From: Deinococcales bacterium
Lineage (GTDB): Bacteria; Deinococcota; Deinococci; Deinococcales; JAAFIG01
Length of the DNA stretch: 32,792 nt
Direction of reading: 5' to 3'
Assembly: GCA_031414595.1 (NCBI GenBank)
Contig: JANNVX010000035.1
Coordinates: 1 to 32,792, forward strand
The notes under the pieces are model-generated. The model saw nothing but the letters and a program-made list of their open reading frames with translations. It did no database searches and was not told the origin of the DNA. Of the stretch, positions 1-32,229 are shown in pieces (position 1 is the first letter of the stretch; every line of letters starts with the position of its first letter). The position numbers and the translations under genes were made by a program.

Positions 1-267
1 GGCTGATGGTGGTTATGCGGGTCAATTGCTTGAGTGGGTCAAAACCTTTTGTTGCTTTATCCTCGAGATTGTTAAGCGTTCTGATACAGCCAGTGGATTT
101 GTTGTCTTACCGCGTCGTTGGGTGGTGGAACGGTCGTTTGCGTGGCTGACTCGTTGTAGGCGTTTAACTGGTGATTTTGAGGGCTTACCGAGTACAACCG
201 AATCTTGGGTTTATTTGGCGAATATTCAGTTGATTTTGAGACGTTTTGACACTTTATAAACACGCTC
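1..267 (+). mobile_element. IS5-family insertion sequence (IS1031-like), right end, truncated by window start
   Basis: Transposase C-terminus followed by TTTATAAACACGCTC, then TTA (268-270). This fits a GAG-initiated terminal IR and a TNA target as in the IS1031 group. Confidence 0.75.
2..259 (+). CDS. IS5-family DDE transposase, C-terminal part (5' partial)
   Basis: Frame is open from base 2: ADGGYAG...[29 protein letters not shown], typical IS5 motifs (ADxGY; RWxVERxFAW). Confidence 0.9.
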
Positions 268-287
268 TTACACAAATCTTTGTTTTT

Positions 288-1700
288 TTAGGGCAGAATC
301 TCGAGGGTACGGATTTTATTAAAGCCCGTCTGACTTTCCCAAACACCTTGGTTAGCAAGTCGAATTGCAAACTCTGGCTTATTTTTTAGGCTTATTTCAG
401 GGTCAAAAAGATGCAGCAACACATCGTATTGACCCGATTCAAGGTCTGAGGGTAAAGATAGGGTTGTTTCAAACTGGATGGTTTGACCAGCCGCCCAGAA
501 ACGCGGGTCAAGCAAGCGATTTTGCGGGATGCTCTGCCCGTCAGTAATGTTCAGCACATATGTTTTTTTGCCACGCAGAACAACTGCTAAGCCTCGAGGA
601 TTAAACGGTGCGGCAAAGCCTGTGTTTTTAAGACTGATTTTTAGGCTTAGCGCTTGGTTGGCTTTGATTGCACTTGGCATGGAGGTCTCGAGCAATTCAA
701 AACGGTATCCAAGACGGCGCTTAATCGCCTCTAAACACCCTTCTTGTTGCCATACAGCATAGACATCTGTGTGATAATCTCGGTTGAGCGCCGTGTATTT
801 GAAGCGTTGTAAATCTTGTAGTGCATTTTGGCAACCAATAAAGGCTTGGGCTTCGGCATTAGCGTTGCAAGTCTCGCCACCCTGGGGTAAGAATTGGTTA
901 TCTAACTCGAGAAAGGTTTTTAGGGCTTCTCGAGCCGCCGCATTTTCTGGATATGTTCCCCAATCGGTTTTGGAAGCCAAAAAACAATCGTTATGTGCGC
1001 CAACTCGAGCGCGATCCGAACCCGAAAAGGCTTCGCTTGGACTGAGCGGCGTATTGCCAAATAATTGTTGTTTGTGCGGTGGGTAACGCAGTGTCAGCAT
1101 TCTTGACTTGGGTAGAATTTGCAATAAACGCTTGACAATCTGGGTAGAAGCGGCATTGACTCCATCAGAACCGACCAGTTGATTGGTAGAACTGTGCCAT
1201 TCGCCCCATGCACCAATAAACCCTGCTTCCATGAAACTCAAAATGTCGGCGTTGTTTTTTAGCAGTGGCTCGAGTTGATCAAGATGCCCAAGAACCCGTG
1301 CTAAAGACGCATCCGGGTCTTTGAATGGGTATGTGCCGCCATTCGGGAAATTATAAGTAAAACGTGGAATGATTTTCATGCCCGCATCCCGAGCTTTAGC
1401 AAATTCGGAATTCAAAAAGGTGAGTGCATCGGCACTTATATCCGAATTCAGGAATTCATCTATCCTGATGTACAAACGCAGCGTGGATACACCCTCGGCT
1501 CGAGCTTTTAGGAGTGCATTGACACTCAATGGATTTCGTTTTGTCCCCTCTCCCATCAGACCTTCTTGCTGATAAAAACCACGTTCTGGATTGGCAAAAT
1601 TCTCTAAACTTGGTTCATACTTCTGGGTGCTGAATACAGGAGCAGCCGAAGCACAAGCACAGACAACCCCAAGAAATAAGAAAAGTTGGTACTTTTTCAT
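288..1700 (-). CDS. Secreted DUF4874/DUF4832 domain protein (glycoside-hydrolase-like)
   Basis: 470 aa with signal peptide. Motifs NPERGFY, GFIGAWGEWH, HNDCFLAS, LGYRF, NxGFAAPFNPR. TAATCT lies 6 nt upstream of the ATG. Confidence 0.8.
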   Translation of the reverse strand: MKKYQLFLFLGVVCACASAAPVFSTQKYEPSLENFANPERGFYQQEGLMGEGTKRNPLSVNALLKARAEGVSTLRLYIRIDEFLNSDISADALTFLNSEFAKARDAGMKIIPRFTYNFPNGGTYPFKDPDASLARVLGHLDQLEPLLKNNADILSFMEAGFIGAWGEWHSSTNQLVGSDGVNAASTQIVKRLLQILPKSRMLTLRYPPHKQQLFGNTPLSPSEAFSGSDRARVGAHNDCFLASKTDWGTYPENAAAREALKTFLELDNQFLPQGGETCNANAEAQAFIGCQNALQDLQRFKYTALNRDYHTDVYAVWQQEGCLEAIKRRLGYRFELLETSMPSAIKANQALSLKISLKNTGFAAPFNPRGLAVVLRGKKTYVLNITDGQSIPQNRLLDPRFWAAGQTIQFETTLSLPSDLESGQYDVLLHLFDPEISLKNKPEFAIRLANQGVWESQTGFNKIRTLEILP

Positions 1701-1857
1701 GGCTTAAGATTAGGCTGTTCTGCTACAAATGTTATGAGCTACCTGTGAGTAACCATACCAGCAGTAGACACGGTAATTTTATGGCGTTACGCTACTTCCC
1801 GAGTTTTCTTGGGATTTTGGTCTGGATGCTAGAACAACCTTAAGGTACACTTCTACC

Positions 1858-3372
1858 ATGATTGTAATTCTTGATTTTGGTTCTCAGTTTACCCGTTTAA
1901 TCGCTCGGCGGTTTCGGGAACTGAATGCTTTCAGTATGATTTTATCGGGTAACGCGCCACTCGAGGAGATTCTCAAACTCGAGCCAAAAGCGATTGTCTT
2001 ATCTGGTGGTCCAAACAGTGTCTACGACGAGGCTGCACCCAAACCGAGCGCTGGGGTTCTCGAGTTGCCAATTCCGATTTTTGGGATTTGTTATGGAATG
2101 CAGTTCTTGGCACTGGCTTTGGGGGCAAAAGTCGAATCCTCGAGTGTCCGTGAGTATGGCAAAAGTGTTCTCTCGAGTTATTCTGGGGCATTGTTTGAAG
2201 GCATCGAAGGCGAATTTGTGGCTTGGATGAGCCACGGTGACAGTGCCAAAAGTTTGCCTGATGGGTTTTCGGTCACATGCAGCACCTCGGACACGGCGAT
2301 TGCTGGTTTTGAAAACCAAGCTGCCAAGCGTTACGGGATTCAGTTTCATCCCGAAGTGGTGCATACCCCAAAAGGTTCAAAAATTCTCGAGAATTTTATT
2401 GCCTTAGCAGGTGTGGCGCGGGATTGGACAGCCGAACATATTGTGGATGAGTTAATTGCTGATGTTCGCGCTAAAGTCGGTTCGGATAAAGTCATGCTGG
2501 CGGTCTCGGGTGGGGTTGACTCGAGTACCTTAGCGCTGCTCTTATCTAAAGCCATTGGTTCGCAACTCACCGCAGTCTTTGTCGATCATGGGCTGTTGCG
2601 GCTTAACGAACGTGAGGAAGTCGAAAAAGCCCTTGGCAATGCCGATTTACGGGTGGTGGATGCCTCTGAGCCGTTCTTATTGGCTTTAGAGGGCATCGAA
2701 GACCCCGAAGCCAAACGCAAAGTTGTCGGGCGTGAATTTATTCGGGTTTTTGAACGTGAAGCGCGGACACTCGAGGCTCAGGGCTACCGTTGGTTAGCCC
2801 AAGGCACACTCTACCCAGATGTGATTGAAAGCGCTGGCGGAATCGGTGCTGCCAACATCAAGAGCCATCATAATGTCGGTGGTTTACCCGACGACCTGAA
2901 TTTTGATCTTCTCGAGCCATTTCGTTTATTGTTTAAGGACGAAGTGCGTGAAATTGCCAAGGTGCTTGGTTTACCAGAAGCGATTCGTTTGCGCCATCCG
3001 TTTCCAGGTCCTGGTTTAAGCATTCGTATCTTGGGCGAAATCACCAAGCCAAAAATAGATATTTTGCAGCGTGTAGACGCAATTTTTATTGCTGCCCTCA
3101 AAGACTGGAATTTATATGATGCTGTCTGGCAAGCGCTGGCAGTCCTAACCCCTGTCAGAAGTGTCGGTGTTATGGGTGATGGTCGTACCTACAGTTATTT
3201 GGTGGCGCTGAGGGCAGTCACCAGTATTGATGGCATGACCGCAGACTGGGCGCGTTTACCGCATGATTTTCTCGAGTACGTCAGCACCAAAATTGTCAAT
3301 GCCGTTCCAGAAGTCAACCGCGTGGTTTACGATATTACTTCTAAGCCACCAGCCACGATTGAATGGGAATAA
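1858..3372 (+). CDS. guaA: GMP synthase (glutamine-hydrolysing)
   Basis: [36 protein letters not shown] and C-terminal [15 protein letters not shown] lies 6 nt upstream of the ATG (leaderless). Confidence 0.98.
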
Positions 3373-3374
3373 AA

Positions 3375-3402
3375 AAAATCCCCTGCAATTGCAGGGGATT
3401 TT
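3375..3402. terminator. Bidirectional intrinsic terminator
   Basis: Perfect palindrome AAAATCCCCTGCAATTGCAGGGGATTTT between the convergent guaA and 3D-domain genes. Confidence 0.9.
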
Positions 3403-3441
3403 AAGGCTTTTTTGCTCATCGCTCAAGACGCATAGCCCAAT

Positions 3442-4798: not shown

Positions 4799-5089
4799 AT
4801 GATTTTAAGACGTTTATACGAAATCAGCGCCTATCTAACCGTCGCTTTGGCGCTGTTTTGCTTGGTGTCTGGTTTTATCAATGCTGTATCAGGTAAAGGT
4901 CGTCCGGAATCGCTGGTTCTTGGAGTAGTGTTGGCTGCTTTTGTCGGCGTGTGTGGTTTTGTCATCCGCGAATTTGCTTTGTCTGGCGAGAAAAAAGGGC
5001 AGACTTATGTCGGTGTTGCCGAAAAAAGCGAAATCATGAAAGCCGAATCCTTAGCCCGTAAACCACAAAAAGTGGTTGTTAAAAGCTAA
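4799..5089 (+). CDS. Small hypothetical membrane protein (2 TM)
   Basis: AAGGAG RBS before the ATG at 4799; two hydrophobic segments. Confidence 0.7.
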   Translation: MILRRLYEISAYLTVALALFCLVSGFINAVSGKGRPESLVLGVVLAAFVGVCGFVIREFALSGEKKGQTYVGVAEKSEIMKAESLARKPQKVVVKS

Positions 5090-5150
5090 ATCGGTCTTGT
5101 CTTAAATGGGTTTACTTATTTGTAAGCTCATAGATTTTTTTTGGTGGTTT

Positions 5151-5639
5151 ATGAATATTTACTTAATACTGGCGGTACTTGTGGCTGTTTTTTTTGCCAT
5201 TGCCCTTTATTACGCCCTAAAATTCCCTAGTGGTAAATGGTTCAGTACCCGCCGCGACAAATTACTGCGTAAAACAGGACCGACTGCCGAAGCAATACTC
5301 GAGAACTTGAATGTACGTTTTTTAAGTCGGGCTGGCGGACAACCCCGTTTAATGCTGAACGCGGTGTACGGCTATCAAGTCAAGGAAACCAAGTACCAAA
5401 TCACTTTGCCTTTTGAAAGCGCTAAACTCCCAGACTCGAGCATTAAAAATGCCGTGACCACCCAAGAATTTGAACGTGAAATCCCCGAACAACTTGAACT
5501 CGAGAGCGGCTTAAAACTCGAGGGGCGCGAAAGTATTAAGCACTATTTTCTGGAATTACTGCGCCAAAAAAGCCCCAGCGTCACCGTGATTTACGATAAA
5601 CACAGCCCGAGTGTCAGCACCGTCCGAAATTGGCGCTAA
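5151..5639 (+). CDS. Hypothetical protein with N-terminal membrane anchor
   Basis: GGTGG before the ATG at 5151; N-terminal hydrophobic helix; 162 aa. Confidence 0.7.
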   Translation: MNIYLILAVLVAVFFAIALYYALKFPSGKWFSTRRDKLLRKTGPTAEAILENLNVRFLSRAGGQPRLMLNAVYGYQVKETKYQITLPFESAKLPDSSIKNAVTTQEFEREIPEQLELESGLKLEGRESIKHYFLELLRQKSPSVTVIYDKHSPSVSTVRNWR

Positions 5640-5680
5640 CCTAAAAATACTCGAGAAGAATGATAGGAAATAGCTAGAAG

Positions 5681-6880
5681 CTAATTTAGTGTAATTCGCA
5701 TGGCACGGTCTAAAAGCTCGAGCGTGGCGTTTTTCCATTCAAACTTAAAATTATCATGATGAACCCGTAAATCTGCGACACGATTTACGGCTGGTGCATT
5801 GGGTAATTTGACATAGGTCTGGGTAATCATCAATGGATTTTGTGCGCCAAATGTTAAACATGGCAAGTCCTCGAGTTCAAAAGAACCTTTGGCATCGCCT
5901 AAACGCAAGTAACGGCTGTGCAGCACCTCACCAGCCTCGAGCAATTCCATATTCAGCGGGTCAAAACCTTGGGGTTGAAGTGGGGTTTTAGACCTAATTT
6001 CAAGCATAAATCCGTAGCCATCAAAAAACTCGGCGCGTTTGGCTTCACGTGTTTGTTTAAGCGTTTCGATGTCTTGCCTAGCGCGTTCACGTTCATACTC
6101 GAGAATCGAGAAGGTTAAAGGGCGTTCTGGAGCAGTTTTTGCCACAGTTTTTAAGAGATTATCTGGATATTCGCTACCCAATTCCCGAATTTGCTGTGGT
6201 GCAAAACGGGTCAGTAATTCAATCCAAGCCCGCCCAATCGCGTAAGCTCGAGGGCGTATTTCATTGGGGGCAAAATCATCTTCGGGCAGCAGTAGGGCTT
6301 GGTTCATCACCCGACCTTCAACAAAATAGGCTGTACCTTCAATCCGCTCTAATTCTCGTTCAAAAACGCGGTGTTTTTCCTCGAGTTTGGCAAAGCGCGA
6401 GGCTCGGGCTTTTAAGGCGGCTCTTGCCCAGCCCAAGTCTTGTTGGGCAATGGCTCGAGATAAGGCACGGGTTTCAAGACGGCGCAGTGCCAGCGTGTCA
6501 ATGTCAAGCATCGGATAAGACAGTAAGTCCAGTTCATTGGCACTCCAACGCGGATACTGCATATTTTGGTAAACATGAAACGCCTCATGGATGGCAAGCC
6601 CAGCCGCCGTTTGGCTATCCACATTTTGTGCCATGACTGTCGCAACTGGTAAAAACTCGAGTGTCCCAGTGCTGTTGCCAATAATGGTTTCGGCACGTCC
6701 TTCCATCACATACCAATCCCATTCGGGTTCAAACGGGGCTGGTGGATTGGGATGATTAAACGCATAAGTACGAGTTCCATCCCAAACCAGCAGTGGAATC
6801 TCGAGTGGTGCAAAACCCGCCCAGAGTGGCTTGCGGCACATCTCGAGGTGGATGGTGTGAAAAGTGTCGGGGTCAAACAT
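5681..6880 (-). CDS. Putative gluzincin-like zinc metallopeptidase (uncharacterised)
   Basis: HEAFH (HExxH) plus downstream ERIEGTAYFVE. Start moved to 6880, with TAGACT 7 nt upstream. Confidence 0.6.
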   Translation of the reverse strand: MFDPDTFHTIHLEMCRKPLWAGFAPLEIPLLVWDGTRTYAFNHPNPPAPFEPEWDWYVMEGRAETIIGNSTGTLEFLPVATVMAQNVDSQTAAGLAIHEAFHVYQNMQYPRWSANELDLLSYPMLDIDTLALRRLETRALSRAIAQQDLGWARAALKARASRFAKLEEKHRVFERELERIEGTAYFVEGRVMNQALLLPEDDFAPNEIRPRAYAIGRAWIELLTRFAPQQIRELGSEYPDNLLKTVAKTAPERPLTFSILEYERERARQDIETLKQTREAKRAEFFDGYGFMLEIRSKTPLQPQGFDPLNMELLEAGEVLHSRYLRLGDAKGSFELEDLPCLTFGAQNPLMITQTYVKLPNAPAVNRVADLRVHHDNFKFEWKNATLELLDRAMRITLN

Positions 6881-8749: not shown

Positions 8750-9118
8750 ATGATTCTCGATTTACCTACCCAATTCCAAGGCTCGAGCGAAACGCCACTG
8801 GTCACTAAACTGGTTTTCCCAGAATCTGGGGTGCAAATCGAAGGGACGTTTCGCCTCAACGAATTTGCAACGCTTGCCCCAGAACAACTCGAGTTTTTGC
8901 GCTTATACATTAAAGTCCGTGGCAACCTTAAAGAAGTTGAACGCATCCTTGGTTTATCCTATCCAACCATTCGCGCTCGGTTTGACGGGCTATTGAGGGC
9001 GTTGGGGTACGAACCAGAACCCGAAGAAACAGATGCTCGAGAAGCCATTCTTCGCGCCCTCGAGAAAGGCGAACTTGAAGCAGGTGAGGCAGCCGAAAAA
9101 CTCAAGAAATTGGGATAA
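8750..9118 (+). CDS. DUF2089 family HTH protein (putative regulator)
   Basis: IEGTF..FLRLYIKVRGNLKEVERILGLSYPTIRARFD; C-terminal ILRALEKGEL. Confidence 0.88.
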   Translation: MILDLPTQFQGSSETPLVTKLVFPESGVQIEGTFRLNEFATLAPEQLEFLRLYIKVRGNLKEVERILGLSYPTIRARFDGLLRALGYEPEPEETDAREAILRALEKGELEAGEAAEKLKKLG

Positions 9119-9161
9119 AGATTTTTTTAGGCTATGCAAATTCATGGTAATTTTTTACCCA

Positions 9162-9752
9162 ATGGAACTCTGGCTTATTCGGCATGGCGAAACACTTTGG
9201 AATAGAGAACAACGCGCTCAGGGACAACTCGATGTGCCACTATCGGGGCTTGGTCTCGAGCAAGCCGAAAAACTAGCCAAGCGCTTGCAGCACACCAAAT
9301 TTGATTGTATCGTCTCGAGCGATTTGCAAAGGGCGTACCGAACAGCCGAGATTGTGGCGGCTCGGCTCGAGTTGCCGATTTTGTCAAGCACGGCTTGGCG
9401 TGAAATCCATATGGGGATTGGTCAGGGTTTGACCTACTCAGAAATTTTTTCGCATCAAGGTGTTCGCCCAATTGACCAACCTTGGGAAGGCGGAGAATCC
9501 AAGCGTGATGTGATGAGCCGTGTGGCGGTGGCGATTGAAAAGCTATACAGCCAATTTGAGGGTTCTCGAGTAGCGGTTTTTTCGCACGGTGGGGCAATTC
9601 GCGGCGCGATTCATGTTCTCTTAAACGACTTAGACCAACGCCTTGATTTTGCCGAGCGTGGCAACACCAGTATTTCTAAACTCGAGGTTAAAGCGGGTAA
9701 TGTTGGGCGTTTATTGGTCTACAACGACACTGCCCATCTCGAAAGCCAATAA
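9162..9752 (+). CDS. Histidine phosphatase (phosphoglycerate mutase family)
   Basis: LIRHGET, SSDLQRA, GES, SHGGAIR, YNDTAHL. Start moved to 9162. Confidence 0.92.
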   Translation: MELWLIRHGETLWNREQRAQGQLDVPLSGLGLEQAEKLAKRLQHTKFDCIVSSDLQRAYRTAEIVAARLELPILSSTAWREIHMGIGQGLTYSEIFSHQGVRPIDQPWEGGESKRDVMSRVAVAIEKLYSQFEGSRVAVFSHGGAIRGAIHVLLNDLDQRLDFAERGNTSISKLEVKAGNVGRLLVYNDTAHLESQ

Positions 9753-9784: not shown

Positions 9785-9813
9785 TTGCACTAACTCGAGA
9801 AGCGTACTAAACT
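9785..9813 (+). promoter_or_regulatory. Putative acnA promoter
   Basis: TTGCAC-17 bp-TAAACT upstream of the AAGGAG RBS. Confidence 0.6.
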
Positions 9814-9867
9814 ATCTTCATACCCTCGAGTGCGGTAAAATAGCAACTCGAGAAACAAGGAGATTGT

Positions 9868-12588
9868 ATGGTCAAGAATTCTTTTGGAGCGCGTGAAACC
9901 TTAGAAGTGGCTGGGCAAAAATTCTATTATTACCGACTCGAGAAGTTAGCCGAACTTGGTTTTGATTTAGCCAAATTGCCGTTTAGCATTAAAATTATGC
10001 TCGAGAGTCTACTGCGTAACTGCAATAATTACGATGTCACCGAAAATGATGTCAAGCAACTGGCGGCATATAATGCTGCCGCGCCGCTCGAGGTCGAAAT
10101 TCCGTTCAAATTGGCTCGAGTGATTCTCCAAGATTTTACCGGTGTGCCAGTCGTGGTGGACTTAGCCAGTATGCGCCACGCGATGAAAGCCCTTGGTGGC
10201 GACGAAAAGAAAATCAATCCAATTGTTCCAGTGGATTTGGTGATTGACCACTCTGTTCAAGTGGATTATTACGGCAGTGCCGAAGCGCTGCTCAAAAACT
10301 CTGAACTCGAGTTTGAACGCAACCTCGAGCGTTACGAATTTTTGCGTTGGGGACAGCAAGCCCTTGATAACTTTGGGGTTGTGCCGCCCGCCTCGGGGAT
10401 TGTCCATCAGGTCAATCTCGAGTATTTGGCGAAAGGCGTGATGTCTAAAGCCGAAGATGGTCTCGAGGTGCTGTTTCCAGATAGTTTGGTCGGTACGGAC
10501 TCGCACACCACGATGATTAACGGACTTGGGATTGTTGGTTGGGGCGTAGGTGGCATCGAAGCCGAAGCTGTGATGCTTGGGCAACCCTTGTACATGCTGA
10601 CCCCAGAAGTGGTCGGCTTTAAGGTCTCGGGCAAACTCCCAGAAGGCAGCACCGCCACCGATTTAGCGCTGGTTGTGACCCAAATGTTGCGTAAGCATAA
10701 TGTGGTTGGTAAGTTTGTCGAATTTTATGGTTCGGGTTTAAGCTCGATGACCCTGCCAGACCGCGCCACAATTGCCAATATGGCACCTGAGTACGGCGCA
10801 ACCATGGGCTTTTTTCCAATGGACGACGAAGCGATGCGTTTTATGAAACGCACTGGGCGTTTGGACATGGAAGTTGAAGTCTTAGAAGCCTACATGAAAG
10901 CCAACGGCTTATTCCGCACCGACGAGACCCCAGACCCCGTGTTCTCGAGCCTGATTGAACTCGATTTAAGCACCGTTCTGCCGAGCCTCGCCGGTCCCGC
11001 CCGCCCACAAGACCGTGTGCTGATGTCGGAGATGCCCAAAGTCTTTGCCGAAGCACTGATTGCCCCTAAAGACAAACGCGGTTATGCTTTGTCTGGCGCA
11101 AAACTCGAGGCTAAGGGTACAGTCAAAAATTTTAACGGCTTTAATGGCGAAATTACCCATGGTGATGTCGTGATTGCCGCGATTACAAGCTGCACCAACA
11201 CCTCTAACCCAAGTGTGATGATTGGCGCGGGACTGCTTGCCAAAAAAGCCGTGGAGAAGGGTCTAACCGTTAAGCCATGGGTCAAAACCAGTCTTGCGCC
11301 CGGCTCGAGGGTTGTGACGGCGTACTTGGATGATGCGGGGCTTACCCCATACCTTGACCAACTTGGTTTCCAAACCGTCGGTTATGGTTGCACCACTTGT
11401 ATTGGCAACTCTGGACCACTGCCAGACGAACTTGTTGCAGCCATCAATGAAGGTGATTTGGTGGCTGCCAGTGTGCTGTCGGGCAACCGCAACTTTGAAG
11501 GGCGGGTCAATCCGCATGTTCGTGCCAATTACTTGGCTTCACCGCCGCTTGTGGTGGCATATGCAATCGCTGGCACAGTCAAACTTAATCTCGAGACCGA
11601 GCCGCTTGGACATGACCAAAACGGTAATCCTGTTTTCTTGCGCGATATTTTCCCCTCGAGCAGCGAAATCCAAGCCGCCATGGATGCGACCATCACCGCC
11701 GATAAGTTCCGCCGAATTTATGATGGTATCGCCCAGAGTAACCAACAATGGAATGCCATTCCCGTCAAGGGCGGAGACCTGTTTAACTTTGACCCAAACA
11801 GCACCTATGTTCAGAATCCACCGTACTTTGAAGGCTTAACCATGCAAGTCGGTACAATCCAAGCGATTCATGGCGCAAAAGTGCTGCTGAAACTCGGCGA
11901 CAGCATCACCACCGACCATATTTCGCCAGCCGGCGCGTTCAGTGCAAAATCCCCTGCTGGTAAGCACCTGATTGAACTGGGTGTACCTGTAAGCGATTTT
12001 AATTCTTATGGCTCGAGACGCGGCAATGACCGTGTGATGACTCGCGGTACATTCGCCAACATTCGCATCAAGAACCAACTTGCGCCCGGTACAGAAGGCG
12101 GCGTGACCACGTACTTGCCCACAAACGAAGTGATGAGTGTTTACGATGCTGCCATGCTTTACAAAAACTCGAGTACACCCCTTGTGGTACTGGGTGGCAA
12201 AGATTACGGCATGGGTAGCAGCCGTGACTGGGCAGCCAAAGGCACGATGCTACTGGGTGCAAAAGCCGTGATTGTTGAATCGTTTGAGCGTATTCACCGC
12301 AGTAACTTGGTCGGTATGGGCGTGTTGCCGTTGCAATACAAAGATGGTCAGAACGCTGAAAGCCTTGGTTTGACTGGACTCGAGACTTTTGATTTCTTAA
12401 TTGGTGACGACCTTAAACCACGCCAAGACATCACGGCTCGAGTGACTAGCCCTGATGGTAATACCCGTGAAATCACGCTCTGGTGCAGAATTGATACACC
12501 AGTCGAAATTGATTACTACCGCAATGGTGGCATTTTGCAATTTGTACTACGGCAACTGGCACGTGAAAGCATGGCAGTAACAGCCTAA
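9868..12588 (+). CDS. acnA: Aconitate hydratase A
   Basis: 906 aa; [45 protein letters not shown]. Confidence 0.98.
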
Positions 12589-15122: not shown

Positions 15123-15164
15123 AGAACAGCCTAGCACACCTGAAAATTGGGTATATTGCGCTGT

Positions 15165-16061: not shown

Positions 16062-16119
16062 GTTTTGCGTTTGACAGTCTCGAGATGAAATTTTTGGCAA
16101 GCTCGAGTAACATACAGGC

Positions 16120-20352: not shown

Positions 20353-20354
20353 AT

Positions 20355-21502: not shown

Positions 21503-21505
21503 GGT

Positions 21506-24500
21506 TCACTCTTCACTTGCCCAGCGTTGTTTTTCAGATTCATACTCGGCAAGTGTCAAGTTATAGACCTGAGAATTATCCTCTTCTGGGGTGTTGATCA
21601 CAAAATGACAACTTTGGATAAAGGTTTCAACCACATGGGTTTTATCTTTGGGTGTGACCACCAAAAGCTGCAATTCTAATTGCTCAAATAAGCTCATGGC
21701 GTACCTCGAATTGGCTTCATCGGACTTACTAAAGGCTTCGTCTACCACCACAAACCGAAAGGTTTTAGGATTACTCTTGTCCAATTGATACTGATAAGCA
21801 ATTGCCGAAGCCAAAATTGTATAGGCAAGTTTGGCTTTTTGTCCACCTGATTTACCACTCGAGCCTTCATAATAATTTTTTTCTTTGTTTGATTCTCGGT
21901 ATTTTTCCCTTGCACCAAAAACCCGCCATTGGCGCACATCAGTTACTTTTTCTGTCCATTTGGCATCGGCAGAAAATCGTTCAATCAAAGTTTTGATACG
22001 CCTATAGTTTTCTTCTCGCATTTCAAGGTTCTGCAATTGCCCTTGGTCGGGAGTACAAGCCCTTAAGAGATTGCGAAAATCGGTAATGGCAACATCAGGG
22101 TTCTTTTTTGCCTCGAGTTGAATATAGGTAGACGGTGTGTAGTCAATTCGCTCTAAGGCACTGTTTAGGGCTTTGATGCTGTCTAAAATATCTTCTTCTT
22201 GTTTCTCGAGATGAAACTGAAAACTTTTAATTGCAATTGTAATTTTATCGTCCAGCCATTCCTTAAACTGCTCACGGTGCTTGGGTAAATCATCGCGCTC
22301 TAAACGTTCGAGTAAACGCTGGTACTCGGCAAGCGAGGCAATCGTGGCATCTAATTCAGTGCTGTCTGCCGCAAACCGACGACAAAATTCGCTCATCGTT
22401 TCTTCGATTCTTTTTTGTACGCCATTGGCTTGTCCAAGATACGATTTACTGCGTTTGGTCAGCGAATCTTTGAGGCTGTCTAGTAAATCGGCCGCGTTCT
22501 CGAGGTCAATGGTTTTCCCACGCAATTCGGTTGCTATGGTTTGGCTAAAAGCCTGCCAAAGATGGCTCGGTATTTCTGCAAGCAGTTTTTGCAACTTATG
22601 GATTTGGGCTTGGTGTTCGGCTAAGCCACGTTTTTGTCCACCTAAATCTTGATCTGACTTTTGGCGTTGCTGCTCGAGTTCTTTTTGTCGTGCCTGACAG
22701 GTTTTAAGTTGTTCTTGCAAGACTGCCAAATGATTGGATTGGGCTTCAAGCGCCAAGTGCTGAGCGGTCAGTTGCTCGAGTTGGATGGCATGGGGTTGCC
22801 AATCGAGGTCTTGGAATTGGCTAAAGTCAAGTAAACGCTGCCAGATTTTTTGTTGTTCTGCTAAGGCTTTACGGGTTTTTTCAAGGTTATGAATATCAGA
22901 TAAGGCGGTGCTGTAATCCACAGCAGCGTTGGAACGTTCTTCTTCTAAAGCCTTTAACTTATCCAAGTTGCTCCAGCCCAATACATAGGTTTTGGCATCG
23001 CCAAGGTTTTTGCTGTCATCTTTTTCATGGCGGTTTTCGTTGTGTTTAATTTGCCCCGATAAACTTAATGCCCGACGCTCGAGCCTAAATTGTTCAATTG
23101 AATCACAGCAGATAAAATCCCAGCGTTCCAAAAGTTCCTGTCGCAACCATGCCTGCATTGGATGACTGGGTTTAACCTCGAGTTTACTCACCAACATCGC
23201 GGGTTCTGCTTCATCGTTGTGGCTGTTGCGCCGAGGCAAAGTGCGTAAATACACCAAACGCCCACGCAAATGGGTTTGATTGACATATTCGCTGACCCGT
23301 GCATACAAGGGTTCTGGCACAAGCAATTGCTTGGCAAAGGGATTTAACAAGCGCTCAATCGCAGCTTCCCATTTGTTTTCTTGGTTTTTAACCCGAATCA
23401 GTTCTCCAGCAAAAGGCAAGGTCTCTTCTGAAATCCCCAAAGCATGGGTCATCTGAGCGCGAATTTGCAAATTGGCACTGGGGATATTGCTTTGACGCGT
23501 ACTGAGCGAATCAATCTCGTTTTTGAGTGCCAACAAATCGGTTCTTAATTTACTGGCTTCAACTTCGGCTTCAATGCGTTCCTGTTGTGATTCCTCGAGT
23601 TTTAGCTCTAAATTCTGGATTTGCTTTTGGGCTTCTAAACGCAAATGATTAAATTCAGGCAACGATACGACTGAAGCTAAACCCAACTGACCAAGTAAGG
23701 TGTTGTACTCCTGCATTTTACGTTTTTTCTGATCCAAAACAGCACCAAGTCCATTGATTTCGCGTTGCAATTCGCTTAAGCGCTTGCCAACATCATCATT
23801 TTGAATGCTGAGTTTAAGGTTTAAGGCAGTGTTTTGTTCTTGCTCGAGACTGATTTGAATTTCTTGGCGTTGCTGCTCTAAAGCCTCGAGTTGCATCTGA
23901 GCGGCTTGGACAGCTTGGGTGCGTAAGTCGAGTTGGCACTGGGCAAAATAAAACTTGGTGGCTTCAGCACTTTTTTCGGCTTGAACCATTTTTTCTTGTA
24001 AAGCCAAAAATTCGAGGTTATGCTGCATCATCGGTTGTAATAAATCAATTTGTTGCTGAGCTTTGAGGATTGCATCATGGGCTTTAGAAAGGTTCTCGAA
24101 CTGTTCACGCAAACTGCGAATCTGCCCATCGGTGTCTGGTTTCTCGAGCATATGGGAGCGCACAAATTCATTTAAGCCCGTGATTTCTTTGATCGAAACG
24201 GTTTGGTTAAATAAATCCAGTGCCTTATCTGAACGCAAACCAAAGCGCTTAATAAAATCTAAGCTGTACTTTTTGAATTCATCATAAAGGCTTGCCCCTT
24301 GACTGCGTAAACGTTTTTTTAAGCCAGCCACTTCGCCATCCAAACGAAAATCAGCCGCGATACTGAGCGGTTTACCCGCCACTAGATAAAAATGTTCAGG
24401 ATTGGCGTTGCCAGCCCAGTAAAATACAGCCGCCAATGAAACCACTTCTTTGCTTGGGGCATCCTTAAATTGAGCCAGCAAAACACTATAATTGTCTTTG

Positions 24501-24808
24501 TCACGCAAATAACGAATACTCGAGCTTGTTTCGTTATCTTCGGTGGTGCGCTTATACGCGCCGCGCACATAGGAAGTTTCGTTGCGTTCACGCTTAGCCA
24601 CATCACCCGAAGCCTGATTGTAATTGCGTTGCCGCGACGACACCAAAAGAGTTAAAAACGCGTCCACCAGTGTGGACTTACCCGAGCCGTTTGCACCAAC
24701 CAAAAGGGCTGTACCGCCATTAACCTCAAGCGACCAGACATGATGACTGAACGTCCCCCAGTTGTAAACCTCGAATTTCTCGAGCCGAAAACCACGGCGT
24801 TTTTTCAT
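21506..24808 (-). CDS. jetC: Wadjet SMC-like ATPase JetC
   Basis: 1100 aa; YNWGTF, Walker A GANGSGKST, long coiled coils, signature KSGGQK, Walker B VVVDEAFSK. Confidence 0.92.
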   Translation of the reverse strand: MKKRRGFRLEKFEVYNWGTFSHHVWSLEVNGGTALLVGANGSGKSTLVDAFLTLLVSSRQRNYNQASGDVAKRERNETSYVRGAYKRTTEDNETSSSIRYLRDKDNYSVLLAQFKDAPSKEVVSLAAVFYWAGNANPEHFYLVAGKPLSIAADFRLDGEVAGLKKRLRSQGASLYDEFKKYSLDFIKRFGLRSDKALDLFNQTVSIKEITGLNEFVRSHMLEKPDTDGQIRSLREQFENLSKAHDAILKAQQQIDLLQPMMQHNLEFLALQEKMVQAEKSAEATKFYFAQCQLDLRTQAVQAAQMQLEALEQQRQEIQISLEQEQNTALNLKLSIQNDDVGKRLSELQREINGLGAVLDQKKRKMQEYNTLLGQLGLASVVSLPEFNHLRLEAQKQIQNLELKLEESQQERIEAEVEASKLRTDLLALKNEIDSLSTRQSNIPSANLQIRAQMTHALGISEETLPFAGELIRVKNQENKWEAAIERLLNPFAKQLLVPEPLYARVSEYVNQTHLRGRLVYLRTLPRRNSHNDEAEPAMLVSKLEVKPSHPMQAWLRQELLERWDFICCDSIEQFRLERRALSLSGQIKHNENRHEKDDSKNLGDAKTYVLGWSNLDKLKALEEERSNAAVDYSTALSDIHNLEKTRKALAEQQKIWQRLLDFSQFQDLDWQPHAIQLEQLTAQHLALEAQSNHLAVLQEQLKTCQARQKELEQQRQKSDQDLGGQKRGLAEHQAQIHKLQKLLAEIPSHLWQAFSQTIATELRGKTIDLENAADLLDSLKDSLTKRSKSYLGQANGVQKRIEETMSEFCRRFAADSTELDATIASLAEYQRLLERLERDDLPKHREQFKEWLDDKITIAIKSFQFHLEKQEEDILDSIKALNSALERIDYTPSTYIQLEAKKNPDVAITDFRNLLRACTPDQGQLQNLEMREENYRRIKTLIERFSADAKWTEKVTDVRQWRVFGAREKYRESNKEKNYYEGSSGKSGGQKAKLAYTILASAIAYQYQLDKSNPKTFRFVVVDEAFSKSDEANSRYAMSLFEQLELQLLVVTPKDKTHVVETFIQSCHFVINTPEEDNSQVYNLTLAEYESEKQRWASEE

Positions 24809-25407
24809 AAGTCCTCTACGTTGTCAGATTTGCTCGGGTCTGATGTGCGAATAGACTCGAGCAACTGATTTTTTAAGCCCAGCAATTGCTCGGCGCTGAT
24901 TCTGGCTTTGATAATAAAACGCACTTCAAAACGGTCTGTGCCAGTCAATGGGCGAAGAAAACCAAGTTTGACGGCTTCTTTGATTGTTTGGTCAAATTTT
25001 TTATACAAACTGCGTTCGTCTAGTTTATCTACCGAAAATGGGCGTTGTAAATCGTATAAATCATCGAGCGTTAAAAGCAATTTATCCGAATCTGGGGTGC
25101 TGCTCTCAAACTGCTCCAAACGCTCACGCAGTAAGACACAGAGCATCGTAATCTCACGCCCCAAGCGATGCCGAGCCACCAAACGCGGCATTGGGATTAT
25201 TTCACCAGATTCATCCTCGAGTTCAGGTTGACGTAAAAAAGCATAACCATCGGCTTCTTGTAAAACCAACTCGAGTCCAATTCGAGCAAAATCTTGGCGA
25301 ATCACTTTTTCAAAATGCAGCAACCTCAGCCATGTCACACGGTCATCGTATTCGATTGCCCCTTGTAAAAGCCGCAACATTAACGGTGCATGTTCATCTG
25401 GACGCAT
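24805..25407 (-). CDS. jetB: Wadjet JetB (DUF4194)
   Basis: About 200 aa; IGLELVLQEADGYAFLRQ and LCVLLRERL; AGGAG RBS before the ATG at 25407; overlaps jetA and jetC. Confidence 0.88.
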   Translation of the reverse strand: MRPDEHAPLMLRLLQGAIEYDDRVTWLRLLHFEKVIRQDFARIGLELVLQEADGYAFLRQPELEDESGEIIPMPRLVARHRLGREITMLCVLLRERLEQFESSTPDSDKLLLTLDDLYDLQRPFSVDKLDERSLYKKFDQTIKEAVKLGFLRPLTGTDRFEVRFIIKARISAEQLLGLKNQLLESIRTSDPSKSDNVEDL

Positions 25408-26812
25408 CGGCACTCCTAAAGGTCATCAGTGGTACACGCCATTGCTGACGATCAAGCTCGAGTACAACCGATTGGCTGGGGTCAAGGCTGTGCTGTTTTT
25501 CACGACCCGCCAGCGTTAAATAACCCAGAATTTCGGAAAGTCCCTGCTTTAATGGATAAACTTCTAGCACATCTTGTAGTGTACAACTTGAACGTGATTC
25601 AAGCAGAACTGAAATACGCCCAAGCAGCTCATATTCATTGACCCAAAATTGCTGATACAACCCCGCAAACACAGGATTGGAAAAATCCAGAACCTCAGCT
25701 TTGGTCGGTTGAATGTTGAGGCGCTGCACCATTGATGCTTCCCATAAGCCTTTCTCAAGAGGTAAAACCACCTCTGGGTCGCCGTCCAACTCGAGCCAAA
25801 AAGCCTGATGAGGCGCAAACATCGCAAGTTGTTTAATTTCTAAAAGTAATTCACGCACCCTGCGCCGTTCAATCAGATTTTGTTCGTCGAGTAAACGCCT
25901 GAGTTGTTCTGCCAAACGCTGATTGGACTGCACCACTTTTTCACCTGCATCGCCAAGGTAACGAATAATCCGTTTTAAGACCACCTGTTCGTCCACCACA
26001 TCTTGCAGTACCGGTAAGGCATAAACTTGTTCGAGCAGAACCCGCAATTCGGTGCGTTTATTTTCCGAAGATAAAAAGTTCCAAAAAGCATAAAAACTTC
26101 TTCCCTGCATCGAGTCACGCAATTGTTGGTCGGCATCCAGTACAAAACCCAGCAATGAACCTTTTCTTGAATCAGGCTCGAGTTGGCGTTCCTGAACGGT
26201 GCGAGCAATTCCACGAAAATTCTCTTCGATGGCTGCAAAATCTGATAGTAAACCTTTAGCAAGGTCGCTGGCTTGCCAGAAACGCTCACGCAGTTGGGTC
26301 TCGGAAAATGCTTCAACTGCATTGCGTTCAAGAATCAAATCAATCTCGGCTTGAATCTTTTTTTTCTCCTGCTCGAGTTGTAAAACCCGAGTGGCTACAT
26401 CTTCGGTGCTTTTTGAAACAATTTGCTCAAGCAAATCAAACATGCTTAAAAAACGCGATTCTGTTCCAACAAATTGATGCTGATACAAACTCTCGAGCCA
26501 AGTGATACAACGCTCGGTATCGGCGGTTAGTTCAACCAAATCGGCTTGTTCACGACGAATAATCCGAATAATCCGGTGTTCTTCATCTGCCCAATCTTTA
26601 AGGTAGGCTGCGGCGGCTTTTGGGTAATCCTCGCTTTTATCCTCGAGAAAATTTTCCAGTTGCGAAACCAATTCGGGCATGGGTACATTGAGGCGTTGGG
26701 TCAACTTAAATTGGGCATATAAAAACCCAAAAATCATCGGGGCATTTTTACTGCGTAATAATTTCAAACTGATTGAATGCTGAAAGTCAAATTGTAAACG
26801 CGGATAATCCAT
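25394..26812 (-). CDS. jetA: Wadjet JetA (DUF3375)
   Basis: 472 aa; LLRSKNAP, FVGTESRF, QGRSFYAFWNFL, PLKQGLSEILGYL; first gene of the operon. Confidence 0.88.
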   Translation of the reverse strand: MDYPRLQFDFQHSISLKLLRSKNAPMIFGFLYAQFKLTQRLNVPMPELVSQLENFLEDKSEDYPKAAAAYLKDWADEEHRIIRIIRREQADLVELTADTERCITWLESLYQHQFVGTESRFLSMFDLLEQIVSKSTEDVATRVLQLEQEKKKIQAEIDLILERNAVEAFSETQLRERFWQASDLAKGLLSDFAAIEENFRGIARTVQERQLEPDSRKGSLLGFVLDADQQLRDSMQGRSFYAFWNFLSSENKRTELRVLLEQVYALPVLQDVVDEQVVLKRIIRYLGDAGEKVVQSNQRLAEQLRRLLDEQNLIERRRVRELLLEIKQLAMFAPHQAFWLELDGDPEVVLPLEKGLWEASMVQRLNIQPTKAEVLDFSNPVFAGLYQQFWVNEYELLGRISVLLESRSSCTLQDVLEVYPLKQGLSEILGYLTLAGREKQHSLDPSQSVVLELDRQQWRVPLMTFRSADASR

Positions 26813-28267: not shown

Positions 28268-28276
28268 ACCAATTCT

Positions 28277-30006: not shown

Positions 30007-30083
30007 GCGTTTAGTCTATGCTCGAAAGCCCCATGTGACCAAAGGGACAAACTACAGTTTATAGGCGATACTGGACTACAATT

Positions 30084-30937: not shown

Positions 30938-31005
30938 GCTGGCAGAATACACCAGATACTCGAGGCTTGAATACTTTCATAACGCATAAATTGCTAAACT
31001 GCTTC

Positions 31006-31539: not shown

Positions 31540-31638
31540 ATTTTAACTCTGTTCATCACCTGTTTCCTTCTTGGCATATTTTTCGGAAAATTAGTTCACC
31601 GCTAAGTCATGATTATCAGCTTTTACGCATGTTTCAAC

Positions 31639-31678
31639 ACATCCGACTGCATAAATCAAGACATCCGACTGCATAAAT
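31639..31678. repeat. 18-bp direct repeat x2 with 22-bp period
   Basis: ACATCCGACTGCATAAAT at 31639 and 31661. Confidence 0.95.
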
Positions 31679-31707
31679 TTGACAAGTGATGAATACCATG
31701 CTATCAT
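31679..31707 (+). promoter_or_regulatory. Near-consensus sigma70 promoter with no sense CDS downstream
   Basis: TTGACA-17 bp-TATCAT with an extended -10 TG. Confidence 0.6.
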
Positions 31708-31718
31708 GTTTCCTATCA

Positions 31719-31742
31719 GCGCCCAGATGTGGCGCATTTTTT
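31719..31742 (+). terminator. Short hairpin + T tract
   Basis: GCGCC-cagatgt-GGCGC-ATTTTTT, abutting the DUF2726 stop. Confidence 0.5.
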
Positions 31743-32229
31743 ATGTCTGCTCGAGTCGTCTTAGCACTTGCGCCAAGCCATCCCCAATCCGTACCCGTTC
31801 GAGAGCAAAACCAGCTACCCGACAAGCCTCATTCTTTGTCGCATCGAACTTTTGTTGTTTTTGATTGTTGTGGCTTTTACCATCTATTTCGAGTGCCAAA
31901 AGTGGTACAAAGTCATGACTCAGAACCAAGAAGTCAAAGTGCATAGCTCGAATACGACTGTAGTGGCTGTACCGCTTTTCGCCTTGTGCCTCGAGGACAT
32001 CAGACAACCGAACCTTGGGGAAAACAATATAATGCCCTTGCAGTGCCTCGAGTAGCGCTCCATAATACTGCAATTCGGATTTGGTGAAAAACTTACCCTT
32101 GCGCTTAAACTCGAGCGGATACTTGCCTGAACTCGACTCAGCACTAAAGCGTTCACGTAACTGCATAACAGCGCCAAATGCACCAATGGCAACAATCACC
32201 AAAATCAAAATGTTCAGCCAAGTGTTCAC
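31741..32229 (-). CDS. DUF2726 domain membrane-anchored protein
   Basis: N-terminal TM; SELQYY, FPKVRLSDV, HFDFLV, LEIDGKSH, DATKNEACRVAG. TAAAAT lies 6 nt upstream of the GTG. Confidence 0.88.
   Translation of the reverse strand: MNTWLNILILVIVAIGAFGAVMQLRERFSAESSSGKYPLEFKRKGKFFTKSELQYYGALLEALQGHYIVFPKVRLSDVLEAQGEKRYSHYSRIRAMHFDFLVLSHDFVPLLALEIDGKSHNNQKQQKFDATKNEACRVAGFALERVRIGDGLAQVLRRLEQT

Follow-up and report, generated by a model that had tools for sequence, protein, structure and literature searches.

CTCGAG, a six-base highly iterated palindrome in a lineage of Deinococcales

The window and its genome

The stretch of DNA analyzed in this work (the window) comprises 32,792 nt of an uncultured Deinococcales bacterium. 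Its genes include an aconitase gene on the plus strand (positions 9868 to 12588), which carries 17 copies of the hexamer CTCGAG and was the source of a 14-genome codon alignment for site gain and loss, and a Wadjet (JetA-D) defence operon on the minus strand (20375 to 26812) with 27 copies, or 4.2 per kb, a density similar to that of the genome as a whole. Three intergenic copies (9794, 9825, and 9847; 9794 to 9852) lie upstream of the aconitase gene, between the ORFs at 9033 to 9752 and 9868 to 12588. Three more are found at 16050 to 16107, the first in the last codons of the ORF at 15147 to 16061 and the other two between genes; both groups had been located correctly in the preliminary description of this DNA. 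Altogether, the window contains 175 exact copies between positions 62 and 32115, one per 187 bp, which have no strand assignment and occur in all reading frames and between genes, with 63, 53, 46, and 13 copies in successive blocks. Base composition predicts 7.0 copies, and 100 dinucleotide-preserving shuffles of the window yielded a mean of 3.8 and a maximum of 8. The earlier manual total of about 175, the expectation of about 7, and the block counts were thus reproduced.

In the whole genome (4.49 Mb), 23,235 copies were counted, corresponding to one per 193 bp or about 5.2 per kb, and CTCGAG ranks first among all hexamers. It is present on all 120 contigs at densities of 2.3 to 8.6 per kb. 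The genome-wide ratio of observed to expected copies (O/E) was 23.9, 43.6, 18.1, 3.8, and 1.16 under Markov models of order 0, 1, 2, 3, and 4, respectively, of which the last value is trivial, because the pentamers CTCGA and TCGAG already hold the excess. Genome-wide, the bases flanking the motif are close to random; therefore, the unit is 6 bp, as had been proposed, and not a repeat element. Dispersed mobile repeats of the REP or MITE type were rejected on the grounds of these near-background flanks and of the gap-free alignment of CTCGAG with other hexamers in aconitase and GroEL.

The motif is found at 5.15 per kb in ORFs vs 5.37 per kb between ORFs, its profile is flat across gene starts and stops, and all three frames are used, which extends to the genome the all-frame and intergenic occurrence first described for the window. 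Intergenic O/E was 29. Shuffling of synonymous codons in ORFs led to an expectation of 1,988 copies, against 20,344 observed (O/E of 10.2, with 9.8 and 16.3 in the two other frames), and shuffling of codon order to one of 924 (O/E of 22). The excess therefore survives the codon-shuffled nulls that had been put forward as a check. The reading that the word is no real feature, and follows instead from base composition, from the usage of codons or dicodons, from a dispersed mobile repeat, or from an artefact of the assembly or library, has next to no probability: it can draw on the order-4 value of 1.16 and on the in-frame dicodon CTC-GAG, which makes up 59% of the genic copies, but the order-4 test is circular, the excess persists under the synonymous shuffle, in the other frames, and between genes, and outside the motif CTC accounts for just 8% of the codons for Leu, and GAG for 21% of those for Glu. 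In addition, 19 separately listed genomes of the family carry CTCGAG, one of them as a single closed contig. Shuffles, flanks, alignments, and these 19 genomes together refute this reading, including the restriction of the excess to one contig, which the preliminary description had considered.

The consequences for proteins are substantial. CTCGAG encodes 12,073 of the 20,133 Leu-Glu pairs (about 60%), and the dipeptide O/E is 2.22 for Leu-Glu vs 0.98 for Glu-Leu. CTCGAG pressure doubles the Leu-Glu pairs in the proteome and recodes 60% of them. A weak force acting at the DNA level can thus reshape proteins, as about half of the Leu-Glu pairs exceed expectation.

Conservation, gain, and spacing of sites

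Over 68 kb aligned to genome G005, at an identity of 92.8%, 334 CTCGAG sites are common to both genomes, and 35 and 38 are present in one only; 90% of the sites are conserved vs 70.8% of all hexamer windows. Where a Leu-Glu pair was retained, its codons were identical in 188 of 199 cases for CTCGAG (94.5%) vs 77 of 111 for other codon pairs (69.4%), and 17 of the 34 changes in non-CTCGAG codon pairs end in CTCGAG. Words one transition away from the motif aligned with CTCGAG in 40 of 193 cases (20.7%), as compared to 10.4% transitions at 9,141 four-fold sites, and only 40 of 741 cognate CTCGAG words aligned with a one-transition variant. The gain/loss asymmetry per change is about 23-fold, equivalent to a scaled bias near 3. 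In the aconitase alignment, 37 distinct CTCGAG positions were identified in the family, of which two are universal, and clade-specific gains change amino acids, for example Gly-Thr (GGCACT) vs Leu-Glu (CTCGAG).

These data show that CTCGAG is a 6-bp, DNA-level word of the highly iterated palindrome (HIP) kind, present chromosome-wide at about 5 per kb and kept by a weak directional force on each site. This force makes existing sites about 5 to 10 times better preserved than neutral ones and promotes changes that yield a full site. The genome- and lineage-wide excess of sites that are gained and kept agrees with the earlier proposal of a genome-wide process that creates or selects the word. Selection and biased conversion fit the divergence data alike.

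Inter-site spacing has a CV of 0.99 and a Fano factor of 0.84 to 1.01 up to 1 kb, and the short-range analysis of the 120-contig assembly revealed a 3-bp periodicity only. The sites are independent of one another, and models that need even coverage fit this near-Poisson spacing poorly. A model of one site per imported fragment predicts even spacing and saturation, a point that counts against the drive by DNA exchange among kin considered below.

Distribution in Deinococcota and the search for associated enzymes

All 18 other genomes of the family are rich in CTCGAG, at about 4 to 7 per kb, including that of G013, a single closed contig. A survey of 251 genomes of the phylum showed the abundance to be graded, confirming the suspicion that other Deinococcota share the bias. 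G253, of another family, has 7.0 copies per kb, and its congener G197 has 0.2 to 0.3. The GroEL proteins of these two genomes are 90.5% identical, with 11 vs 1 copies in their genes, and most of the G253 positions stay Leu-Glu in G197, where other codons are used. Sampled DNA of four nearly complete genomes of other families (G030, G090, G196, and G198) had O/E values of 9 to 11. Genera g7 and g9 are depleted in CTCGAG. The preliminary description had drawn a link to the Thermus TaqI site, TCGA, which was not upheld: g9, which we take to be Thermus, shows no specific CTCGAG excess, and the genome under study has fewer copies of TCGA beyond those in the motif than expected (10,239 observed vs 17,426 expected).

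This distribution bears on the possibility of direct selection on the resident chromosome, in which CTCGAG would serve an abundant protein as binding site, be it for organising the nucleoid or as a Chi-like self mark that spares the cell's own DNA from defence or degradation, and each site would confer a tiny benefit. Such selection is consistent with conservation beyond matched synonymous controls, the uniform density in all contexts, and the scarcity of the word in recently acquired low-GC DNA; the conservation of HIP1 was read as selection by Xu et al. (PMC5861425). However, close relatives (G197 and genera g7 and g9) manage without CTCGAG, so any function on the resident chromosome is dispensable, and no candidate protein was found in the analysis. 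We also know of no nucleoid protein with strict 6-bp specificity at more than 20,000 sites, and consider this explanation unlikely.

Methylation-coupled repair, one of the mechanisms first proposed, was left without gene support. Although the genome contains at least 25 methyltransferase-like ORFs, none is common to G000, G006, G010, and the closed G013 in a comparison of orthology rather than of enzyme specificity. C5 methyltransferases were not found in G010, the sole conserved one being limited to genus g1, and the searches of G013, G014, and G002 yielded no N4/N6 enzymes of the beta class. Vsr was detected in 0 of 19 family genomes, with a positive control matching in three named genomes, and MutH in 2 of 19. 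In G000, one D12 methyltransferase adjoins a MutH-like nuclease, a pair confined to these 2 of 19 family genomes. It might be taken as support for the model published for HIP1 and alternate HIPs (Elhai, PMC4390886), by which the word is a strand-discrimination signal for methyl-directed mismatch repair and selection for a hemimethylated site near every mismatch raises its density. Given a GATC O/E of 0.14 in the genome, the pair is more likely to be a GATC restriction system. This model also lacks a universal methyltransferase in the genomes compared, and its published set-point is near 1 per kb, to which we would add an expectation of even coverage, whereas 5.2 per kb and near-Poisson spacing were observed; we regard it as very improbable. 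A Dam/MutH-type signal was rejected on these grounds.

A bias arising within the cell may also be envisaged, in which a mismatch nickase that originated from a restriction-modification system and recognises CTCGAG would act on heteroduplexes one base off the motif, left by replication errors or base damage, and convert them to the complete word; methylation by non-orthologous methyltransferases that differ between lineages would be optional. CTCGAG is a classical type II site, the independence of the sites suits an enzyme acting site by site, and both protection from loss and faster gain were observed. XhoI-family nucleases (PF04555) with adjacent methyltransferases were found in 4 of 251 phylum genomes, one nuclease being frameshifted and its methyltransferase intact, and relatives of the XhoI-linked methyltransferase (at least 45% identity) in 15 of 251, with none in the depleted genera g7 and g9. 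As such systems and related solitary methyltransferases occur in the phylum only outside g7 and g9, methylation via non-orthologous enzymes may still play a part. On the other hand, in addition to the Vsr, MutH, and methyltransferase results above, the genomes densest in CTCGAG, namely G253, G196, G198, G090, G117, and four of five sampled family members, yielded no member of this methyltransferase family, with only a weak match (29 to 35%) in G009, and the one-nucleotide variants of CTCGAG in the G005 alignment show no deamination-type skew toward one position. A repair bias of this type is therefore a rather doubtful explanation.

Restriction sites are normally avoided. XhoI/PaeR7I systems would share the same word if the PF04555 members in the four phylum genomes keep XhoI specificity, but CTCGAG is the commonest hexamer here and the nuclease was found in 0 of 5 family genomes searched, and an active XhoI-type restriction-modification target was rejected on account of this absence and of the hyper-abundance of the site. 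The search for a gene that tracks the enrichment, as the preliminary description had advised, was negative for the candidate methyltransferase families and Vsr; the competence channel ComEC was present, intact in 40 of 41 genomes including 17 of the 18 additional members of the family, with a frame that mostly spans about 770 aa, but it is equally present where CTCGAG is not enriched and so does not discriminate.

Known systems and a drive coupled to DNA exchange

To our knowledge, HIP1 has stayed unexplained for three decades, and with CTCGAG another phylum, unrelated to the first, now provides a case on which the competing explanations can be compared by test. In the cyanobacteria, HIP1 is GCGATCGC, alongside alternate HIPs (Elhai 2015, PMC4390886; Xu, Lawrence and Durand 2018, PMC5861425). 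According to these studies, HIPs are short GC-containing palindromes, over-represented 15- to 300-fold lineage-wide in genic and intergenic DNA and conserved between genomes beyond background, in genomes that avoid other palindromes and have many methyltransferases. CTCGAG resembles them in being over-represented 23.9- to 43.6-fold on 120 contigs, above the approximately 15-fold or more over composition taken to characterize this kind, in occurring in genic and non-coding DNA beyond codon usage and throughout its lineage, in its conservation above background, and in a genome that likewise avoids many other palindromes. The HIP1-like label given earlier is appropriate in that the word is over-represented genome-wide and across its lineage, and CTCGAG is a real counterpart of cyanobacterial HIP1 in another phylum. 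It is not HIP1 itself (GCGATCGC), as CGATCG occurs only 3 times in the genome. It differs in having 6 rather than 8 bp, no GATC core, and a density about 5 times the approximately 1 per kb given for HIPs, as well as in the doubled Leu-Glu pair of its proteome. None of the candidate methyltransferase families compared by orthology tracks CTCGAG, whereas Elhai (PMC4390886) reports that abundant HIPs are always accompanied by a cognate enzyme. Xu et al. (PMC5861425) report a periodic HIP1 distribution at 10 to 90 kb. In the literature searched, neither highly iterated palindromes outside cyanobacteria nor a paper on CTCGAG over-abundance were found. New here are a trait graded across Deinococcota, extreme in G253 yet absent from G197 of the same genus; a weak per-site bias, with 94.5% vs 69.4% synonymous conservation and an approximately 23-fold gain/loss asymmetry; and near-random spacing, with methylation-coupled repair devoid of gene support. 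The case offers a shorter and different word, a higher density, a genus with members that have or lack it, and weaker enrichment in nearly complete, possibly cultured genomes, and the negative results for methyltransferases, Vsr, and MutH speak against the general validity of the popular methylation-repair model.

Other systems are more distant. The uptake sequences of Pasteurellaceae (USS) and Neisseriaceae (DUS) are asymmetric, non-palindromic words of 9 to 12 nt that occur about once per kb, and their receptor in Neisseria has been identified. The likeness consists of a lineage-specific word in core genes and spacers, a weak drive, some protein cost, scarcity in recent imports, and the presence of ComEC; in form, CTCGAG departs from them, being palindromic, 6 bp long with random flanks, and present at 5 per kb. 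Dcm/Vsr very-short-patch repair in Escherichia coli illustrates that a repair enzyme tied to a restriction site can bias the frequencies of sites and one-off variants, but its effect is small and it requires a C5 methyltransferase and Vsr, neither of which is conserved in the CTCGAG family. Chi sites, which mark self for a recombination nuclease, are also short words enriched several-fold in a genome's own DNA, but they are asymmetric, oriented with replication, and found about once per 4 to 5 kb, whereas CTCGAG is symmetric and far denser.

Deinococcota are known for natural transformation. We tentatively infer that the CTCGAG excess results from a recombination-coupled drive or kin-DNA signal, a reading that we favour while holding it to be short of probable. 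The force would be a molecular drive tied to DNA exchange among kin, in which a candidate CTCGAG-recognising protein would favour CTCGAG-bearing alleles at uptake or during repair of donor-recipient heteroduplexes, so that variants with the word would be fixed more often than those without. Such a drive would not work through a conserved cognate methyltransferase plus Vsr or MutH. Lineages would differ in whether they have acquired or lost the protein, or in its strength, and the graded, patchy distribution in the phylum would follow from this. In favour of the drive are the directional gain and retention of sites, their mutual independence, the scarcity of the word in foreign DNA, the pattern among lineages, and the presence of ComEC. 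A 2026 study (PMC13756078) of HIP1, the closest analogue, linked its abundance to genes for competence and pili, with no significant link to methyltransferases. Counting against the drive, the analysis identified no CTCGAG-specific receptor, nuclease, or binding protein. A 6-bp palindromic classical restriction site suggests a dimeric protein of the restriction-modification type rather than a pilin, which also speaks against this drive.

A broader possibility, somewhat doubtful at present, is that Deinococcota have a second, independently evolved word-writing system, namely a transferable CTCGAG-specific factor that would bias recombination or repair without a conserved methyltransferase plus Vsr/MutH. 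If so, the bias would be strong enough to alter, within the divergence of a genus, positions in the tens of thousands and protein residues in the thousands, and the factor would bear on the thirty-year-old HIP1 question. The contrast between G253, which has the trait, and its congener G197, which lacks it, together with the approximately 9- to 11-fold excess in sampled, nearly complete genomes that may be available in culture, would make such a factor accessible to genome comparison and to laboratory tests.

The ten longest CTCGAG-free gaps of the genome (2.1 to 4.9 kb) have a GC content of 32 to 44%, vs 47% for the genome. Foreign or recently acquired low-GC DNA is devoid of CTCGAG, and the absence of the word is a practical marker of recently imported DNA.

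An iterated palindrome in coding and noncoding DNA

CTCGAG is a real iterated palindrome, present at the level of DNA and throughout a lineage. The window holds exactly 175 copies, as compared to 7.0 expected from base composition, and 100 dinucleotide-preserving shuffles of it gave a mean of 3.8 and a maximum of 8. The block counts of the preliminary description (63, 53, 46, and 13, adding up to 175) were reproduced exactly, and the triplets of sites that it had placed at 9794-9852 and 16050-16107 were confirmed. The assembly of the source genome G000 (4.49 Mb in 120 contigs, 47.2% GC, 94% completeness; the window is contig C35), in which a 16S rRNA search gave no match, contains 23,235 copies, or 1 per 193 bp, which ranks the word first among hexamers. 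It is found on 120 of 120 contigs at 2.3-8.6 per kb. Its genome-wide observed/expected ratio (O/E) is 23.9, 43.6, 18.1, and 3.8 for Markov models of order 0, 1, 2, and 3, respectively; order 4 gives 1.16, a circular result given that G follows CTCGA in about 90% of cases. Across G000, the 10 bases on each side of CTCGAG are near background, so the unit is 6 bp and forms no part of a repeat element, an origin that is thereby ruled out. The sole disfavoured flank combination is the octamer CCTCGAGG, with 178 copies as compared to 1,108-1,905 for the remaining flank pairs (about 6-11 times rarer).

The gene set was a crude one, consisting of 3,843 long ORFs that together make up 88% of G000. CTCGAG density is 5.15 per kb within these ORFs versus 5.37 per kb between them, with no change across gene starts or stops. 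The CTC-GAG frame, encoding Leu-Glu, accounts for 12,073 of the copies in ORFs, and the other two frames for 3,988 and 4,283. A codon-shuffled null had been named as a check in the preliminary description, and the excess survives it: shuffling synonymous codons within each ORF, which preserves the proteins and a codon usage already inflated by CTCGAG, gave 1,988 expected versus 20,344 observed copies (O/E 10.2; 9.2, 9.8, and 16.3 by frame). Shuffling of codon order gave 924 expected copies (O/E 22), and intergenic DNA by itself has an O/E of 29. Neither composition nor codon usage fits as the cause, given the synonymous and intergenic ratios.

The protein sequences of G000 are bent to accommodate the palindrome. 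Its ORFs encode 20,133 Leu-Glu pairs, of which 60% are spelled CTCGAG; apart from this word, CTC represents just 8% of the Leu codons and GAG 21% of the Glu codons. The O/E of Leu-Glu pairs from amino acid frequencies is 2.22, and that of Glu-Leu is 0.98. The tRNA genes contain 7 copies of CTCGAG versus 27.5 at genome density, indicating that strongly constrained sequence resists the word. Seven of the 68 tRNA genes bear it, and five of these are located at C56:144-2945. This cluster comprises Ser, Ser, Cys, Thr, and Glu tRNA genes with one CTCGAG in each, and is possibly a tRNA array carried by a mobile element.

Graded distribution among Deinococcota

Each of the 18 other genomes of the family, which cover 5 genera and include one single closed contig, possesses 12,000-35,000 copies of CTCGAG, and the reversed control word GAGCTC is nearly absent from most of them. 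The supposition that other Deinococcota may share the bias was borne out, since the excess is graded over a sample of 251 genomes. In the large genus g7, which we take to be Deinococcus, CTCGAG is depleted (0.01-0.2 per kb), and in g9, presumably Thermus, it equals the reversed control at about 0.9 per kb. The genera g13, g18, and g19, which we regard as Meiothermus-like, and several genera of a second family, f2, reach about 1.5-3.6 per kb, the control being normal or low. The density is about 3.5 per kb in genomes G196 and G198, and G253, of family f3, has 7.0 per kb, which is as extreme as in the window's family. In sampled DNA, the O/E was 9.0 in G030 (63.5% GC), 9.6 in G090, 10.0 in G196, and 10.9 in G198. 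In G030 and G196, Leu-Glu pairs occur at about twice the expected frequency, and 52-70% of them are spelled CTCGAG, as judged from crude ORFs that over-call where DNA is GC-rich. Extension of the motif to 8 bp in other lineages was rejected, as the flank bias is mild and compatible with GC-rich codon positions.

G253 and its congener G197 form an on/off pair. The O/E in sampled DNA is 28 in G253 (50.7% GC) versus 0.8 in G197 (50.6% GC), and the latter has 683 copies in 2.3 Mb. Their GroEL proteins share 90.5% identity, and the two are therefore close kin and the G253 contigs no contamination from the window's family. Eleven GroEL positions are spelled CTCGAG in G253 and one in G197, which retains Leu-Glu via other codons at most of the G253 positions. 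This pair, and the nearly complete genomes from other families in which the excess is milder, make the question of the cause testable. In the G197 loci L219, L220, and L225, Leu-Glu is spelled CTTGAG 17 times versus 7.2 expected from codon usage; this surplus may be a relic of lost CTCGAG sites or, given the small numbers, due to chance.

Turnover and spacing of sites

A weak per-site directional force holds CTCGAG in place and reshapes proteins as well. Over 68 kb aligned at 92.8% identity between G000 and its closest relative, G005, 334 sites are common, 35 are private to G000, and 38 are private to G005; 90% of CTCGAG are thus conserved versus 70.8% of all hexamer windows. The partners of changed sites differ at 1, 2, 3, or 4 positions in 44, 21, 7, and 1 cases (72, 20, 6, and 1% in control windows), implying that change proceeds mainly in single steps and mainly through transitions. 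The "patch writing" of several bases together was rejected, since the excess of multiple changes is only modest, at least two differences being seen at 29 of the 73 changed sites versus 28% of control windows. Where Leu-Glu is fixed, the spelling is identical in 188 of 199 CTCGAG-coded versus 77 of 111 otherwise-coded pairs, and CTCGAG is the outcome of 17 of the 34 changes among the otherwise-coded pairs. Words one transition away pair with a full CTCGAG in 40 of 193 cases (20.7%), full sites pair with a one-transition variant in 40 of 741, and transition differences amount to 10.4% of 9,141 four-fold degenerate sites. Per specific change, completion of CTCGAG exceeds its destruction about 23-fold in frequency, an asymmetry that equals a scaled bias near 3, with gains at about 2-4 times and losses at about 0.1-0.2 times the neutral rate. 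The genome-wide ratios of CTCGAG to the words one transition away (17-24 in all DNA, 15-32 in intergenic DNA) agree with it. Weak selection would account for these numbers just as well as biased conversion would. Our leading but tentative reading of the force, which we hold to be possible rather than probable, is a drive tied to the exchange of DNA among kin, in which a putative CTCGAG-specific protein would act through preferential uptake or through correction of heteroduplexes.

Turnover is also visible in aconitase, codon-aligned across 14 family genomes. The alignment contains 37 distinct CTCGAG positions, of which 2 are universal and many clade-specific, and most genomes have 16-18 sites per gene and three have 6-12. 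At clade-specific sites, the other clade differs at several bases plus amino acids, with counterparts that include GGCACT (Gly-Thr), CGCGAA (Arg-Glu), and GTAGCC (Val-Ala). The best relatives of the family's aconitase (9868-12588 in the window) outside the family are from Planctomycetota, Sericytochromatia, and others (57-67% identity), and among the best 80 loci, four Deinococcales MAGs are the only Deinococcota. This similarity pattern is a hint that the gene was acquired horizontally long ago.

Gaps between sites in G000 have a mean of 191 bp and a CV of 0.99. Short gaps are scarce (0.12 of expectation below 10 bp, 0.53 at 10-20 bp), gaps of 50-300 bp are mildly over and those of 400-1,000 bp under expectation, and 42 gaps exceed 1.5 kb versus 9 expected. 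No two sites follow each other at distance 6, an arrangement that would make the avoided GAGCTC; 101 pairs are at distance 7, with any middle base. Regular or helical spacing was rejected, as no periodicity other than one of 3 bp was seen. The Fano factor rises with scale, from 0.84 (250 bp) through 1.01 (1 kb) to 1.56 (5 kb). In these statistics, the sites behave almost like independent events, and models in which a site counts only without a neighbour nearby predict more even spacing than observed. Direct selection for CTCGAG as a chromosomal binding site is ranked after the kin-exchange drive and appears unlikely. The ten longest CTCGAG-free gaps (2.1-4.9 kb), namely C46:36667-41608, C30:4279-7534, C14:37565-40431, and seven more, have 32-44% GC versus 47% in the genome, and this low GC gives them a recently imported look.

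Candidate genes and other palindromes

A search for a methyltransferase, Vsr-like nuclease, or competence gene that tracks the enrichment had been suggested beforehand; the family comparison revealed no such methyltransferase, and Vsr was found in 0 of 19 genomes (the control matched E. coli, B. subtilis, and Caulobacter). G000 has at least 25 methyltransferase-like ORFs, none of which tracks CTCGAG. Rejected candidates were a TaqI/BseCI-like methyltransferase on C89 with Eco57I and TaqI_C domains (3 of the 18 other family genomes have it, the closed G013 not being among them), a 1,272-aa Eco57I-type protein on C104 (5 of 18), and the C5 methyltransferases, which were not found in family member G010 and the best conserved of which (C22) is kept in genus g1 only. 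Beta-class N4/N6 methyltransferases were absent at E<=1e-10 from G013, G014, and G002. Intercomparison of all methyltransferase-region ORFs of G013, G006, G010, and G000 gave no common ortholog and matched only type-I-like HsdM at 38-59% identity, which was not in G006. The stretch G000:C1:26904-28483 (4905-6484 of locus L040) encodes a D12-class adenine methyltransferase, whose end is overlapped by a 207-aa MutH/Sau3AI-like nuclease. The pair was rejected as the CTCGAG agent: only 2 of 19 family genomes have the MutH-like nuclease, and with an O/E of 0.14 for GATC in G000, the two genes probably form a GATC restriction system. Four more explanations do not fit CTCGAG: an artefact, repair by Vsr, repair of the MutH type, and, in the family genomes compared, a conserved cognate methyltransferase. 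An intracellular site-specific repair bias that produces the excess likewise comes after the kin-exchange drive; we consider it doubtful, if slightly less so than selection for a binding site.

No XhoI-family nuclease was found in G000 by a search whose control matched nowhere, and 4 of the 251 Deinococcota genomes have one. The genes are intact in G021, G033, and G141 (loci L228-L230) of family f4, with an adjoining beta-class methyltransferase, and frameshifted at G031:C1:1094186-1096226 (L034, L231), with an adjoining intact gamma-class Eco57I/TaqI_C-type methyltransferase. These methyltransferases, for which NCBIfam holds no specific name, would recognise CTCGAG, judging from the neighbouring gene only. 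Fifteen of the 251 genomes, but no genome of g7 or g9, contain relatives of the G031 enzyme (at least 45% identity, in some cases with stops); the enzyme was rejected as the tracking gene, being absent from the densest CTCGAG genomes and from 17 of 22 g13 genomes. G030 has a solitary 48%-identical copy between amidase and Na/Ca-exchanger genes.

With or without the CTCGAG trait, genomes encode the DNA-uptake channel ComEC (40 of 41). For the closest analogue, the cyanobacterial palindrome HIP1, Rodriguez-Cruz et al. 2026 (PMC13756078) link abundance to pilus and competence genes and report no significant link to the two HIP1 methyltransferases. In the literature searched, no paper joined CTCGAG with "highly iterated palindrome," CTCGAG with Meiothermus returned unrelated enzyme work only, and "iterated palindrom" with Deinococc- returned cyanobacterial papers only.

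Other palindromes are avoided to an extreme degree: the window lacks 34 of the 64 palindromic hexamers, and 34 have an O/E of 0.10 or less in G000. The 4.5 Mb of this genome contain 2 copies of TGCGCA, 3 each of GGCGCC and CGATCG, and 6 of GAGCTC, and the O/E of GGCC is 0.011. Ordinary restriction avoidance is generally far weaker than this. The window also carries a complete-looking Wadjet anti-plasmid operon on the minus strand (20375-26812), consisting of JetA (DUF3375; 25394-26812), a 202-aa ORF that is a putative JetB by position (24805-25413), the SMC-like JetC (21506-24808), and JetD (20375-21502). It contains 27 CTCGAG, a near-average density that marks the operon as long resident.
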